DNA from: Vicinamibacterales bacterium | Lineage (GTDB): Bacteria; Acidobacteriota; Vicinamibacteria; Vicinamibacterales; JAMQPK01 | Direction: 5' to 3' | NCBI GenBank assembly: GCA_963784045.1 | Contig: CAWAPZ010000017.1 | Coordinates: 67,816-131,815 of the forward strand | Length of the DNA: 64,000 nucleotides | Part shown: positions 25,983 to 45,630 of the stretch, piece by piece | Layout of the letters: each line of letters starts with the position of its first letter | How positions within the stretch are numbered: position 1 is the stretch's first letter | Translations under genes and position numbers: made by a program | The notes under the pieces: generated by a model | The model's input: only the letters and a program-made list of their open reading frames with translations | What the model was told of the DNA's origin: nothing | Databases searched by the model: none

Positions 25983-27098
25983 ATGCAGGCGCGTAAACCA
26001 GAGGGGCCGCCGCACATCCCGGCTCATCGCGAAACATTCCGCGCCGCAGCATGGGGCGTGCTGTTCACCGCCGTGCTGGCGTCGCTCATCGTCGTCGGAT
26101 CTCGCGGTCTCGAGCATTTCGACGCCGCTCTCGTTGGCTACACGTTCGCGACGCTCTTCGCGATGTTCGGAATCACCTATCGCTACGCGATGTGGCTGCA
26201 GCGGCCGCCAACGCGCATGTACTGGCGGCGCGGCTGGCAGGTATTTCTCACGCCGCGCTCCCCAGGCCGAAAAGCGGTGCAGTTGTCACGCCGCCTGTTC
26301 GTCGAATTCGGCGCCAATCGTTTTATCTTCCGCCGAGGCGCGCTCCGCGGCGCCGCGCACTGGCTCATCATGTGGGGCTGCATCCTCGCGGGGGCCATCA
26401 CGTTCCCGCTCGTATGGGGATGGATCGAGTTCCGCACTGTTCCGAATCGATTCGACCAGTACCGCACGTTCGTCTTCGGCTTTCCCGCCACGGCATTCCG
26501 GATTGACTCGTGGATCGCCTTCGTGGTCTTTCACGGACTCGTGTGGGCCTCGCTCCTCGTCATGGCCGGCGTTATGATTGCGTTCCGCCGCCGGATGGTC
26601 GATCACGGAGCGATCGCGGTCCAGCAGATCGCCGACATCCTGCCGTTGGTGCTGTTGTTCGCGATCAGCGTCACAGGACTGCTGCTGACGGCGAGCTATA
26701 CGTGGATGAAGGGATACGCGTACGACTTTCTCGCGATCCTCCACGCCATTACCGTGATCTTCACGCTGTTATGGCTGCCGTTCGGAAAACTGTTTCACAT
26801 CTTCCAACGGCCTGCGCAACTTGGCGTCAGCTTTTACAAAGACGAGGGCCGCCGCGCCGAACAGGCGCAGTGCCGCCGCTGCGGCGTGGCGTTCGCGTCG
26901 AACATCATGGTCCGCGACCTCGCCGAGGTCGAGAGGCAGCTCGGCTTCAGCTACGACATGAAACCGGAGGAAGGCGCCGAGCACTATCAACAGATCTGCC
27001 CGCGATGCCGGCGCGCGTTGTTCGGCCTCGCACAAGGCGCGCTGTGGCGGCAAGCGCTGAACAACCGGCTGAGCGACGATGTCGACACGTCCCGTTGA
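25983..27098 (+). CDS. NarI/DsrM-like dihaem cytochrome b membrane subunit with a C-terminal CxxC...CxxC zinc-ribbon tail
   Basis: Five or six TM helices with four intramembrane His ([36 protein letters not shown]). The last block is typical of the nitrate-reductase-gamma superfamily. Cytoplasmic tail: CRRCGVAF...30 aa...CPRCRR. Confidence 0.6.
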
Positions 27099-29349
27099 CG
27101 AGCTGAAAATTATCGAGCGATTCGGGCCGCACCTTGCCCTGATGCGCGGCGAGCGGCTCTCGACAACCGTCGAGCCCGAGCGCCTCGTACGTACGCACTG
27201 CTGCTTCTGCGGTCAGCAGTGCGGCATTCAACTGAAGGTCAAGGACAACGAGGTGATCGGGTTCGAGCCGTGGGAAGAATTTCCGTTCAACCGCGGAATG
27301 TTGTGCCCGAAGGGCGTCAAGCGCTACCTGCAAGGATCACACCCTGATCGGCTCGTCACCGCGCTGGAGCGCGACGAGTCGTCGCCGGCCGGATTCCGCG
27401 ATGTCCCGTACGACCAGGCCATAGCGAAGGTCGCATCGGAGATTCAACGTCTTCAAAGCGCCTACGGCAACAGCTCCGTCGGCCTGCTGGGCGGTGCGAG
27501 CCTGACGACCGAGAAAACCTATCTGCTCGGAAAGTTCGCCCGAGTGTGTTTGAAGACGCCGTATATCGACTACAACGGACGGCTGTGCATGGTGAGCGCC
27601 GGCGCAGCCAACAAGAAAGCGTTCGGCATCGACCGGACGACAAACCCGTGGTCGGACATGATCGGCACAGACGTCATCTGGGTCGCCGGCTCCAACGTCG
27701 CCGAATGCTCTCCGATCACAACGAACTACATCTGGCAGGCGCGCGAGCAGGGCGCGAAGGTCATCGTGCAGGATCCGCGCATCACTCCGCTCGCGCGGAC
27801 ATGCGACTTGTTTCTCCCCGTGAAGCCTGGCCGCGACGCGGCGTTGTTCGCCGGCGTGCTCAACGTCATGATCGATCGCGGCTGGATCGACCGCGACTTC
27901 ATCGAGGCGCAGACCGTTGGCTTCGAGCAGGTCGCCGAGTACTGCCGTCAATGGACGCCGGAACGCACCGCCGAGGTCACCGGCGTGCCTGCGCGATCGC
28001 TGCTGCAGGCGGCCGAATGGTGGGGGACGGCGAACACGAGCTTCCTCTTCCACGCGCGCGGTATCGAGCACCATTCCAACGGCGTGCAGAACGCGCTCGG
28101 GACGATCAACCTCGTGCTGGCGACCGGGCGCATCGGCAAGCCCAAGAGCGGCTACGGCACGATCGTCGGTCAGGCCAATGGGCAAGGCGGCCGCGAACAC
28201 GGGCAGAAATGCGATCAGCTGCCTGGCTGGCGCGACATCACGAATCCGGATCATCGCAAATACATCGCCGGCGTGTGGGGCATCGAGGAATCTGCAATGC
28301 CCGGCCCCGGAGTCGACGCGTACGAGATGTTCCGGAAGATCGACGCTGGAGAAATCAAAGGCCTGGTGGCGATCTGCTTCAACCCGACGGTCTCGCTGCC
28401 GGATTCAGGCTTCATCGAGCGGTGTCTCGACAAGCTCGAGTTCTTCGTGTCGATCGACTTCTTCCTCAACGACACCGCGCGTCATGCCGACGTCGTGCTG
28501 CCCGGGAGCTTGCAGGAAGAGGACGAAGGCGTCGTGACGCAAGTCGAGGGGCGTGTCATCAAGATCAACAAGGCCGTCGACTGCCCGGGCGAGGCGCGGC
28601 AGGATTGGATCATCATTCAGGACATCGCAAAAGCGCTGGGCCGCCCGCACGGGTTCACATTCACTACGCCGCGCGAGATTTTCGACGAGCTCCGGCGGGC
28701 CAGCAAAGGCGGTGTCGCCGATTACTCCGGCATTACATACGAAAAAGTCGAGCGTGAGATGGGCGTCTTCTGGCCGTGCTACAGCGAGGATCCGAAAACG
28801 GGCGTCGCAGTCGACCATCCCGGCACGCCGCGCCTGTTCGAACGCGACAGCTACAACCCGATCGCGAAAGGCTCGGGTCCGTTCTATTTCCCCGACGGAA
28901 AAGCGCGGTTCAACGTGGCCGACTACCGCGTACCCGTCGACGACGTCAGCGCCGACTTCCCGATCTTCCTCACGACCGGCCGTGTCATCAGCCAGTTCCT
29001 CTCGGGTACACAGACGCGGCGCATCGGTCCGCTCGTCGCGCAATACCCGGAACCCCGGATCGAAATACATCCACGCCTTGCCGACAAACTCGGTGTTGTC
29101 GACGGCGCGTGGACGGTCGTCGAAACGCGGCGCGGCGCGTTGACGCTGCGCGCGATGGTCGTCACGACCATCAGGCCGGACACGGTGTTCGTGCCGTACC
29201 ACTGGCCGGGCGAGAAGAGCGCCAACCGGCTCACAGTCGCCGCCCAGGATCCCATCAGCAAGATCCCGCAGTACAAGGTGTGCGGATGCCGAGTCCGAAA
29301 AGCAGACGCGGCGCCGGCGTACGCCGCGGTACTCGAGCCGCAACAGTAA
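27079..29349 (+). CDS. Mo-bisPGD oxidoreductase catalytic subunit, Nas/NarB/Nap-like, no Tat signal
   Basis: 756 aa. N-terminal [4Fe-4S] motif [10 protein letters not shown]...MLCPKG. Putative Mo-ligand context [17 protein letters not shown] (Cys codon 27586..27588). No RR leader. ATG overlaps the upstream gene by 20 nt. Confidence 0.85.
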
Positions 29350-29380
29350 CCACGAAGACACGAAAACACGAAGACGAGAG
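29350..29380 (+). repeat. CACGAAGA 8-nt tandem array filling the spacer between the Mo and FeS subunit genes
   Basis: taa C CACGAAGA CACGAAAA CACGAAGA CGAGAGAT C atg. The 13-mer CACGAAGACACGA recurs at 42432. Confidence 0.65.
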
Positions 29381-29383
29381 ATC

Positions 29384-30118
29384 ATGCCTAAACCGGCCCA
29401 CCTGAACTTCTACATCGATCCCAACCGATGCATCGGATGCCAGGCGTGCGTGCAAGCCTGCACCGAATGCGACACGCATCGCGGCGAGTCGATGATTCAC
29501 CTCGAGTTCATCAACCGCGCGGCGAGCGTGCAGACGGTGCCGGTCGTCTGCATGCACTGCGAGCAGCCCACGTGCGCCGAGGTGTGCCCCGCCGACGCCA
29601 TCAAGCGGTCTGGTGACGGCGTCGTGCAATCGGCGTTGAAACCGCGGTGCATCGCGTGCGGCAACTGCGTCCTCGCATGTCCCTTCGGTGTTCCCGAGGT
29701 GTACGAGGATCGGCAGATCATGATGAAGTGCGACATGTGCTACGACCGCACCAGCACAGGCAAGCGGCCGATGTGCGCGACGGTCTGCCCGAGTCAGGCG
29801 CTCTTCTTCGGCAGCGCGGAGCAGATCGCGCAGCTTCGGCCGATGTCCGAGCCTGTAAACAGATTCCAGTTCGGAAGACAAACCATCTCGACGCGTGTCT
29901 CCCTGATGGTGCCGAAACAGATCGCGAGGCCGCAACCCCTGGTCGATGTCACCGCGGCGATGCAGGAGGCGCCGAGCAACCGCGCAATCACATTCAAGGT
30001 TGTTGCCGACCTGAAGGTCGGCACTACGACACGGGTGGCCGACCTCCAGGTCGGCACGACAGCCGATCGCAACGTCGGCACGACCACAGATGACCCATTC
30101 GATGAGGTGGACATTTGA
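29384..30118 (+). CDS. Four-cluster [4Fe-4S] ferredoxin subunit (DmsB/NrfC/PsrB-like), no Tat signal; its C-terminal tail is built from REP-like hairpins
   Basis: [44 protein letters not shown]...CATVCP. Tail: [32 protein letters not shown]. Confidence 0.85.
30004..30084. repeat. REP-like palindromic hairpins inside the FeS-subunit coding sequence
   Basis: GCCGACC-TGAA-GGTCGGC (30005..30022), GCCGACC-TCCA-GGTCGGC (30038..30055) and a half copy CGTCGGCACGAC. A 25-mer is identical to 45421..45445. Confidence 0.8.
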
Positions 30119-30759
30119 GCGCCGAACAGGACCCTCGACACCGAATCGACGCGCGCGTCGATACGCCACAACGCGAAGGGCTCACCGGAACGGCACCCAC
30201 CAGCCTGTATCGGCCCATTGTGGACGCCGATGAGATTACGCGGGCGCCGGACGGAAAGCCGCTCGTCGAGCAGCCGAAATGGCGGCGCGATTTTCCCATC
30301 GACACGCCGCAAGATCTCTACGTCGCGCGCCGCGACTTCATGAAGTTCATGGTCCTGACGAGTCTTGCGTTCACCGTTGGACAGTTCTGGATCGCCGCCC
30401 AGAACTGGCTCAGGCGCCGCCGGGGAGCGCCAGAGTTGAAAAAGATTGCGAGCCTCGCGGAGATTCCTGTCGGCGGGGCGATCACGTTTCTCTATCCCGA
30501 GCCCGCCGATCGCTGCATTCTGGTTCGTCCAGCCCCGGATGTCGTCGTCGCGTTCAGCCAGCAGTGCACACATTTGTCCTGCGCGGTGATCCCTCAGCCC
30601 GAGCAGAACCGCCTTTTCTGCCCCTGCCATGAAGGCGCGTTCGATCTGCAATCGGGCCGCCCCATCGCAGGCCCTCCGAACCGTCCGCTCACGCGTGTGC
30701 TTCTCGACGTGCGCGGCAACGATGTCTACGCATCAGGCATCGAATTGAGGACGGTGTAG
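30115..30759 (+). CDS. Membrane-anchored Rieske [2Fe-2S] protein (bc-complex type)
   Basis: Cluster boxes CTHLSC and CPCHEGAF. Single TM helix preceded by ARRDFMKF (twin-arginine-like). About 65-aa hydrophilic N-terminal extension if the TTG 30115 start (TTGA overlap with the upstream stop) is correct. Confidence 0.75.
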
Positions 30760-44841: not shown

Positions 44842-45630
44842 TCAGGCCACGTCTTCGCCGTTGAGAAGTGCCCGCACCTTCTTCATGTCCTCCCACACTT
44901 CGCGCCGGCAGCTTGGATTGCGCAGGAGAAATGCGGGATGAAAAGTGGGCACGAGCTTCGCGTTGCGATAGTCGTACACACGGCCACGCAAACGCGAGAT
45001 GGAGTCGGTCGATTTCAGCAGCGACTTCGCCGCGAAGGTCCCAAGCGCCACGATCACTTTTGGCTTGATGGTGTCGATCTGGCGGAACAGGAACGGCTCG
45101 CACTGCTCCACCTCGTCGGGCTCGGGATTGCGGTTTTCCGGCGGACGGCACTTGATGACATTCGCGATGTATACGTCGTCGCGCGTCAAACCGATCGCTT
45201 CGATGATCTGCGTCAGCTTCTGACCAGCGCGTCCGACGAACGGGATGCCCTGAATATCTTCGTCGCGGCCCGGTGCCTCGCCCACGAACATGAGATCGGC
45301 GTTCGGATTGCCGACGCCGAACACGATCTGCTTACGCCCCAGCCGGCACAGCTTGCACCGCACACAGTCGCCGATGTCCTCGCGGATCGCGGCGAGCTGA
45401 GCGGCGGTGTCGGCCGTCGGGCCGACCTGAAGGTCGGCACTACGAGTGTCGGGCGCCGGCGTCGTTAAGCTGGCCGCATCTGTCGTAGTGCTGCCCTTCA
45501 GGTCAGCCATCTTCAGGTCAGTCCCACCGTCGGCTCGCGCAGACCACACGGGATCCTTCCGGAATCCCGCCACGCCAAGCTCACCGAAGAACTTGAGGTG
45601 TTCTGCTAACTGCTCGCGATGATCCGGCAT
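44842..45630 (-). CDS. Family-4 uracil-DNA glycosylase; its N-terminal linker contains REP-like hairpins
   Basis: CVRCKLC...[23 protein letters not shown]...HPAFLLRNP. Linker: [39 protein letters not shown]. Confidence 0.85.
45415..45521. repeat. REP-like palindromic hairpin plus inverted degenerate copies, inside the UDG coding sequence
   Basis: GCCGACC-TGAA-GGTCGGCACTACGA (45421..45445), the inverted degenerate copy CGTAGTGCTGCCCTTCAGGTCAGC (45484..45507), and the partial copy CTTCAGGTCAG (45511..45521). Confidence 0.8.

Follow-up and report, generated by a model that had tools for sequence, protein, structure and literature searches.

A GTAG-headed REP family with its own RAYT gene in a Vicinamibacterales genome and its probable in-frame copies in variable protein segments

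The palindrome studied here is a short hairpin sequence that is found in several copies within the reading frames of an iron-sulphur (FeS) subunit and of a uracil-DNA glycosylase (UDG), both encoded on a 64-kb window from an uncultured Vicinamibacterales bacterium. The window is the whole stretch of DNA that was analysed and corresponds to positions 67816-131815 of contig C17 in the source genome, labelled G000. With a probability of about 0.9, the palindrome is a member of a family of repetitive extragenic palindromic (REP) elements headed by GTAG, which possesses its own REP-associated tyrosine transposase (RAYT) gene and has many copies situated in frame in variable loops and tails of proteins. 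The family is repeated throughout the genome, copies lie in frame within genes, the RAYT gene is bracketed by copies, and an orthologous site is known at which the element is missing. A first-pass annotation, made from the letters of the window, had taken the palindrome for a REP-like element domesticated as coding sequence.

The repeat unit, its distribution and its transposase

The genome that was scanned comprises 4.65 Mb on 20 contigs and has 62.5% GC. Alignment of its copies and a position matrix define the REP unit as the oriented 24-mer GCCGACCTGAAGGTCGGCACTACG, which consists of a 7-bp stem (GCCGACC/GGTCGGC) enclosing a 4-nt loop (TGAA) and of a tail, ACTACG. Read on the opposite strand, the unit is 5'-CGTAG-T-GCCGACC-TTCA-GGTCGGC-3', i.e., it has the architecture of a GTAG-headed REP, and its hairpin folds with -14.1 kcal/mol. 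The strict-stem pattern GCCGACCTNNAGGTCGGC occurs in 125 copies on 19 of the 20 contigs, and when up to 4 mismatches are allowed, 237 non-overlapping copies are found genome-wide versus 2 for the reversed-sequence control. The motif is therefore not limited to the two loci of the window, where the 18-nt pattern has 3 exact matches versus 0.02 expected, and the earlier suspicion of a dispersed REP-type hairpin repeat is borne out. The ACTACG tail, the GTAG head of the other strand, is kept in 116 to 123 of 123 copies, with CTAC at consensus positions 20-23. Stem variants in which both arms are altered together, such as GCTGACC..GGTCAGC and GCCGGCC..GGCCGGC, are compensatory. Copies are often close to one another, 151 of the 237 having a neighbour at a distance of 150 nt or less, and adjacent pairs are either inverted with heads facing (43, with short spacers), direct (48), or inverted with heads outward (6).

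Three tandem arrays (C19:290021-290230, C15:189486-189575, and C5:204396-204541) repeat with a fixed period, either 36 or 33 nt, and have spacers that are nearly identical, and at first sight such arrays resemble CRISPR arrays. A CRISPR array was rejected because the spacers of the tandem arrays are identical or nearly so (e.g., with the 36-nt period at C19:290 kb) and not unique, and because the copies are scattered, singly or as inverted pairs. Miniature inverted-repeat transposable elements (units of 70 to 300 bp, with terminal inverted repeats and target site duplications) were rejected on the grounds that the unit is 24 nt long and has an asymmetric tail, and that the position matrix displays no consistent flanking duplication. 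An intrinsic terminator was rejected as well, as no T-run follows 3' of the hairpin. An Rfam scan of the whole window returned tRNA only and no known RNA family over the REP element.

Genes were predicted with our own codon-usage caller, which gave 3777 genes at a coding density of 85%. When the copies are counted and classified genome-wide against these predictions, 164 of the 237 are intergenic, 55 lie wholly within predicted genes and 18 straddle a gene end. Among the intergenic copies, convergent spacers are enriched (46 observed versus 25.5 expected) and divergent spacers are depleted (21 observed versus 42 expected), and ten genes end on the TGA of a REP loop. This intergenic bias, the convergent enrichment and termination on TGA are the usual behaviour of REPs.

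Two places in the genome match the Pfam family Y1_Tnp (PF01797). One of them is a 166-aa open reading frame (ORF; G000:C15:229589-230089) that scores 86.4 bits (cutoff 80) with NCBIfam NF047646, 'REP-associated tyrosine transposase', and contains ..MPDHVHLLV.. and ..ARYILENPVRAGL.., in which we take HVH and YILENP to be the catalytic HUH and tyrosine motifs. An inverted REP pair (32 nt, 94% complementary) encloses this RAYT gene, and further copies are situated nearby, so that looking for a RAYT, as the first-pass annotation had proposed, led to one gene flanked by inverted copies of the element. Among the RAYT loci that were fetched, this REP flanks only the 89%-identical orthologue in the genome G016, in the same bracket arrangement (a single place that was fetched twice, as L035 and L050), and it is not present in the flanks of fetched relatives with 59% identity or less. 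Such confinement to a close orthologue corresponds to the specificity expected of RAYT-REP pairs. The RAYT presumably mobilises the REP family. The second Y1_Tnp match (G000:C6:73632-74495, L001:1279-2142) is an ORF of 287 aa that has an HUH-like motif, NHWHLL, and is not close to the RAYT.

RAYT relatives in public genomes come essentially all from metagenome-assembled genomes (MAGs) of Vicinamibacterales/Acidobacteriota. Three RAYT genes with 49-58% identity to the RAYT described here (L052, L063, and L129) are found in a MAG record, CAYHHH01, that is labelled 'uncultured Bifidobacteriaceae', a label that looks wrong. With at most 2 mismatches, the richer genomes have 167, 91, 46, 39, 19, 18, 15, 14, and 10 copies of the REP, and the other genomes of the same genus that were searched have 0 to 6. 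At the same threshold, no copies were found in the genomes searched outside the genus, except for 2 matches in one genome. In essence, the REP family belongs to a single genus of uncultured Vicinamibacterales, in which copy numbers are very uneven.

In-frame copies in the FeS subunit and in UDG

Both loci of the window are listed in Table 1. The FeS gene is situated 3' of a molybdopterin oxidoreductase gene and 5' of a Rieske gene, and the palindrome copies noticed in its C-terminal tail are present, letter by letter, at 30005-30085. They form a cluster of three direct repeats with start-to-start distances of 33 and 24 nt. Copy 1 has the core GCCGACCTGAAGGTCGGC (30005-30022) with the 7-bp stem and the TGAA loop, and copy 2 has the stem-perfect core GCCGACCTCCAGGTCGGC (30038-30055), in which the change of the loop to TCCA converts K to Q. 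The first-pass annotation had read copy 2 as the inverted, CTTCAG form; the copy is direct, with GGCACGACA after it and without a CGTAGT head in front. Of the two full copies and one half copy counted at that time, the two with perfect stems stand, and the 'half copy' is a degenerate third unit of 24 nt.

Table 1. Features of the two REP-bearing loci; positions are those of the window.
Feature	Position	Strand	Description
FeS gene	29384..30118	+	DmsB/FdhB-like 4Fe-4S dicluster subunit in a molybdopterin oxidoreductase operon; host of three REP copies
REP copy 1 (FeS)	30005..30028	+	perfect 24-mer GCCGACCTGAAGGTCGGCACTACG; read ADLKVGTT
REP copy 2 (FeS)	30038..30061	+	direct, 4 mismatches, loop TGAA to TCCA; read ADLQVGTT
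REP copy 3 (FeS)	30062..30085	+	degenerate GCCGATCGCAACGTCGGCACGACC, 18/24 consensus positions, abuts copy 2; read ADRNVGTT
Conserved C-terminal codons of FeS	30092..30118	+	DPFDEVDI + stop; in orthologues with and without REPs
Rieske-domain gene	30115..30759	+	predicted TTG start overlaps the FeS stop
UDG gene	44842..45630	-	family-4 UDG; REP pair in N-terminal linker
REP copy (UDG)	45421..45444	+	perfect, antisense to UDG; read RSADLQVG
REP copy (UDG)	45484..45507	-	3 mismatches (GCTGACCTGAAGGGCAGCACTACG), sense of UDG; read ADLKGSTT
Partial REP (UDG)	45508..45521	-	CTGACCTGAAGATG; read (T)DLKM
Conserved N-terminal motif of UDG	45538..45630	-	in orthologues across genus and order

FeS orthologues were located in five other genomes and their gene ends were compared. 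In G002 (84% protein identity) the site is empty and reads KVV-A-DPFAEVDI*; the tail ends KVVADPFAEVDI* and has the same overlap of stop and start with the Rieske gene. The orthologue of G018 (95%) has one REP copy (+27 nt), the source genome has three (+84 nt), that of G010 (78%) has a 10-residue linker unrelated to REPs, and in that of G016 (83%) a different palindrome with a GTAG head, GTAGGGCGGAGCTTCAGCCCCGCC, occurs twice. The last eight codons, DPFxEV(D/E)(I/V)*, and the stop are in frame throughout and differ mainly at third positions (GAC/GAT, CCA/CCG/CCC, and TTC/TTT). In five independent MAGs the insert lengths are multiples of 3 with the downstream codons in frame, and there is no stop before 30116 in the FeS gene. 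As the conserved end is kept in frame with and without REPs, the copies are in-frame insertions into a variable coding tail that existed before them. G002, whose empty site already has the conserved end and the overlap with the Rieske gene, refutes the proposal that the element had lengthened the FeS ORF into what was once spacer. In the sequence of events that we propose, a REP would have inserted in frame at a variable spot just 5' of the conserved C-terminal motif, and local amplification would then have led to the three direct copies.

The FeS tail site of G016 (L006:1440-1530) is thus occupied by a second, low-copy REP family with a GTAG head, GTAGGGCGGRRCTTNAGYYCCGCC, which has compensatory stem variants of its own. 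With a degenerate pattern, 7 copies of it are found in G016, 9 in G006 and 0 in the source genome, and a narrower first pattern had given 4.

In UDG, the 25-nt stretch at 45421-45445 is identical to FeS copy 1, and the REP within it forms an inverted pair, heads facing, with the copy at 45484-45507; the 25-nt identity and the inverted degenerate copies described by the first-pass annotation were thus recovered. Matches to the N-terminus of UDG, from residues 1-7 onward, occur across the order, and the N-terminal motif is conserved in the genus. Since this motif lies beyond the REP pair, the pair would be inside the translated protein. The segment between the N-terminal motif and the catalytic core is hypervariable, and the presence or absence of REPs in it differs among species: G000 and G009 have the inverted pair, G006 has one inverted copy, G020 has a variant pair, and G002 and G018 have unrelated SPE-type repeats. 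The inverted pair occupies this hypervariable linker between the N-terminal motif and the catalytic domain. FeS orthologues without the insert and the hypervariable UDG linker agree with the earlier view that the element is tolerated in frame in variable segments of proteins. In G009 (L011) and G018 (L018) the N-terminal motif of UDG is out of frame with the core, the shift being situated within the repeat-filled linker, which is either an indel error of long-read MAG assembly or a real loss of the N-terminal segment.

The RNA structure computed for both loci is strong. In mRNA, the REP cluster of FeS is predicted to fold with -49.1 kcal/mol (z = -5.2), and the UDG pair to fold as one long hairpin with -56.6 kcal/mol (z = -4.3).

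Reading frames, host proteins and alternative explanations

The share of copies within genes is 23% when all predicted genes are taken and about 13% on a conservative count, for which a strong upstream coding signal was required and UDG was admitted through the support of its orthologues. This robust set comprises at least 30 copies in 19 genes. Among the 55 in-gene copies, 24 are read as ADLKVGTT, 16 as VVPTFRS, 13 as RSADLQVG, and 2 as RPEGRHY, and both RPEGRHY copies fall in doubtful N-terminal regions. For 30 robust copies the frame counts are 14, 11, 5, and 0, the empty class being RPEGRHY (chi-square test: P about 0.001 when copies are counted and about 0.008 when genes are). The avoided frame uses AT-ending, rare-type codons, and its avoidance might reflect either selection or a target preference.

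It had been suggested that the element is tolerated because it reads ADL(K/Q)VG on either strand. This is not supported: 16 copies read VVPTFRS and ten genes stop on the TGA of the loop; with three frames in use, the symmetry covers only part of the in-gene copies. The freedom from stop codons that was noted for this frame is real but not special, as 4 of the 6 frames of the element lack stops and, by our own arithmetic, about 80% of the frames across 24 random nucleotides with 62.5% GC would lack a stop; a stop-free reading is therefore unremarkable.

A Pfam scan of ten host proteins places REP copies between domains in most of them. They are found between the N-terminal and C-terminal domains of MutL, between the Competence and Lactamase_B domains of ComEC, between the ligase and Prim-Pol domains of LigD, between Proton_antipo_M and C-terminal regions of NuoL, and between the cytochrome c region and the propeller of a PQQ dehydrogenase. 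An AccC-like biotin carboxylase has REPs in its C-terminal tail as well as between its ATP-grasp domain and its C-terminal domain. In GltB and in an AMP-binding enzyme the REP occupies a loop within a domain, and in SMC REPs are situated in the hinge and in the coiled coil. In many hosts the coding signal is strong before and after the REP, and in several it is flanked by Pfam domains at either side.

The biotin carboxylase (G000:C14:30664-32241) deserves separate mention. Throughout the genus, repeats accumulate in its loop between QIEIARGAxL and GHAIEVRVYAENP, which is filled by a REP pair in G000 and by tandem units such as VGLSS or VGLDAT in other species, with inserts of 0 to about 27 residues. 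As the loop is a hot spot for several unrelated tandem repeats, the site is uninformative on the conservation of REPs. The shortest orthologues read AGLK at the REP site, and the empty FeS site of G002 (L005:2110-2130) reads GCCGACC, which is the left arm of the REP. At these one or two sites, half-site targeting, an old degenerate REP or chance may be responsible.

The explanation that we favour is that of a REP family presumably spread by the cognate RAYT of the genome, a sizeable minority of whose copies have survived in genes. Two reasons would account for their survival: 4 of the 6 frames are without stops, and the copies in question lie in permissive, length-variable loops, linkers and tails. 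The encoded peptides would be neutral. Several points weigh against this explanation. Gene calls are our own, and copies near N-termini may sit in 5' leaders; an ambiguous case is C18:79318-80550, in which the REPs precede a segment resembling a signal peptide. That the hairpins are translated is suggested by ORF continuity and by the conserved codons downstream. The repeat clusters are taken from a MAG assembly. G009 has 91 copies without a close RAYT, in a MAG that is 82% complete. In addition, the ComEC copy has diverged much less than the coding DNA around it, which purely neutral 'tolerated junk' does not predict.

This ComEC copy (G000:C9:61471-61494, read VVPTFRSA) is found at the same codon position in G000, G009, G002, and G001 (loci L041 and L131-L133), and is absent from six other genomes of the genus. 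Across the four species 24 to 25 nucleotides of a 25-mer are identical, and 148 flanking coding bases are about 59% identical between two species pairs (P between 2e-6 and 4e-5). Were the copy a purely neutral relic, it should have diverged no more slowly than the coding DNA beside it, so that at this one site selection on the hairpin, homogenisation or re-insertion must be considered. The copy is also the only hint of maintenance, at the level of DNA, that can be set beside the term 'domesticated' of the first-pass annotation; no peptide function is evident, and we do not retain the term.

The strongest competing explanation, which we consider unlikely, is that in-gene copies are kept for a function of the hairpin in DNA or RNA, e.g., in mRNA stability, in an interdomain translational pause or in the binding of gyrase or nucleoid proteins, or that they are homogenised by the REP/RAYT system. 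Besides the ComEC copy, it would account for the strong mRNA folds at FeS and UDG, and for the fact that copies within genes are no more degenerate than those between them, with perfect 24-mers in 17 of 55 in-gene and 45 of 164 intergenic copies. However, FeS copies 2 and 3 and several UDG-linker copies of relatives are degenerate or have indels, and the insertion sites are hypervariable and also host unrelated repeats. The quantitative comparison concerns one orthologous site, ComEC, and an appearance of conservation there could also be produced by gene conversion or by re-insertion at a hot spot.

A broader proposal, that coding linkers are a regular, maintained habitat of REPs in this genus and not an accident, is put forward tentatively, as a rather doubtful one. 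Pointers to it are the absence of RPEGRHY among the 30 robust copies, the codon-friendly nature of the frames in use, the repeated filling of the same permissive sites by different REP families in different species and the near-invariance of the ComEC copy. If it were true, either the hairpins would be under selection in mRNAs or REP/RAYT homogenisation would be active, and REPs would be a systematic source of variation in linker length in essential proteins.

It seems very improbable that the copies are not truly in genes and represent ordinary extragenic REPs or terminator-like hairpins, which over-extended ORFs or errors of MAG assembly have placed there. Ambiguous N-terminal cases such as C18:79318-80550, the frameshifts in the UDG linker of G009 and G018 and the dependence of the clusters on MAG assembly would fit such a view. 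Against it stand the open FeS frame with its conserved end and inserts in multiples of 3 in five MAGs, the conserved protein segments on both sides of the UDG pair, the many hosts with coding signal (and several with Pfam domains) on both sides of the REP, and the lack of a T-run after the hairpin.

Hardly any credence can be given to the idea that ADLKVGTT is a protein motif selected for the function of the peptide, with an incidental palindrome: the core does read ADL(K/Q)VG on both strands in one frame, with codons rich in G and C at the third position, and this frame is the commonest within genes, but the reading is already contradicted by the intergenic majority of 164 among 237 copies and by the use of three in-gene frames (VVPTFRS in 16 of 55), and furthermore the two-arm stem variants preserve pairing and not the peptide, and the host proteins are functionally unrelated.

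Relation to known REP systems

GTAG REPs and their RAYTs are known from other bacteria. The survey by Di Nocera, De Gregorio and Rocco (2013, PMC3733652) describes such pairs together with REP dimers, compensatory sub-families, stop codons supplied by REPs and REPs lying wholly within ORFs. In the same survey, intra-ORF REPs are placed in linkers and at termini, with DNA-repair genes as frequent hosts, and caution is advised where copies lie near the N-terminus. The same ground of GTAG REPs and RAYTs is covered by Bertels and Rainey (2011, PMC3116915) and by Nunvar et al. (2010, PMC2817692). The family described here resembles these systems in its unit, a short palindrome rich in GC (stems of 6 to 9 bp) that has GTAG at one end, in having hundreds of copies, dimers and clusters, in its enrichment 3' of genes, in a RAYT flanked by inverted copies and in compensatory stem sub-families. 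Those defining features of GTAG REP-RAYT systems that were examined are all present, namely the palindrome, the copy number, the GTAG end, the extragenic bias, inverted dimers and clusters, and the flanked RAYT with its HUH and tyrosine motifs. Proteins of DNA metabolism make up a share of the hosts here that recalls the survey.

There are also differences. The sequence family is new and comes from Vicinamibacterales, whereas Acidobacteria appear in the text of the 2013 survey (PMC3733652) only with transposases flanked by terminal inverted repeats. The in-gene share is high, and the stop codon is mostly supplied by the TGA of the loop and not by the TAG of the head. The novelty accordingly consists in the family sequence, the host lineage and the high in-gene share, the phenomenon itself being known.

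An older precedent for palindromic repeats in frame within genes, whose products are thought to be functional, is given by the Rickettsia palindromic elements (RPEs; Ogata et al., 2000, cited in PMC3733652). The likeness consists in the in-frame insertion of a palindrome into coding genes. RPE-1 units have a length of about 100 to 150 bp and reside in an obligate intracellular alphaproteobacterium, and we know of no dedicated RAYT described for RPEs. In contrast, the units of the present family are 24 nt long and a cognate RAYT is present.

In REPINs, an inverted doublet is the mobile unit (Bertels and Rainey, PMC3116915, PMC3337134). The 43 inverted adjacent pairs and the folding of the UDG doublet as one hairpin resemble this arrangement, whereas direct pairs are similarly frequent (48) and the copies in FeS are all direct. 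By analogy, the doublet is a candidate for the transposing unit here.

These data document a REP-RAYT system in Vicinamibacterales, an abundant uncultured soil lineage, and the empty, single-copy and multi-copy states of one site show how REPs are inserted in frame and amplified in the tail of a protein. For annotation, the family accounts for odd low-complexity peptides in conserved enzymes of these MAGs, and it flags sites where long-read indels or the choice of the start codon can break gene models. The conservation of the ComEC copy offers a small, testable lead for telling selection from homogenisation as the cause of REP maintenance.

The gene set that includes the FeS gene (25983-30759) is unusual. 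In addition to the DmsB-like FeS subunit, it encodes a membrane protein that carries CxxC pairs at its C-terminus and lacks a match in Pfam, a NasC/FdhA-like molybdopterin oxidoreductase and a membrane-anchored Rieske protein.

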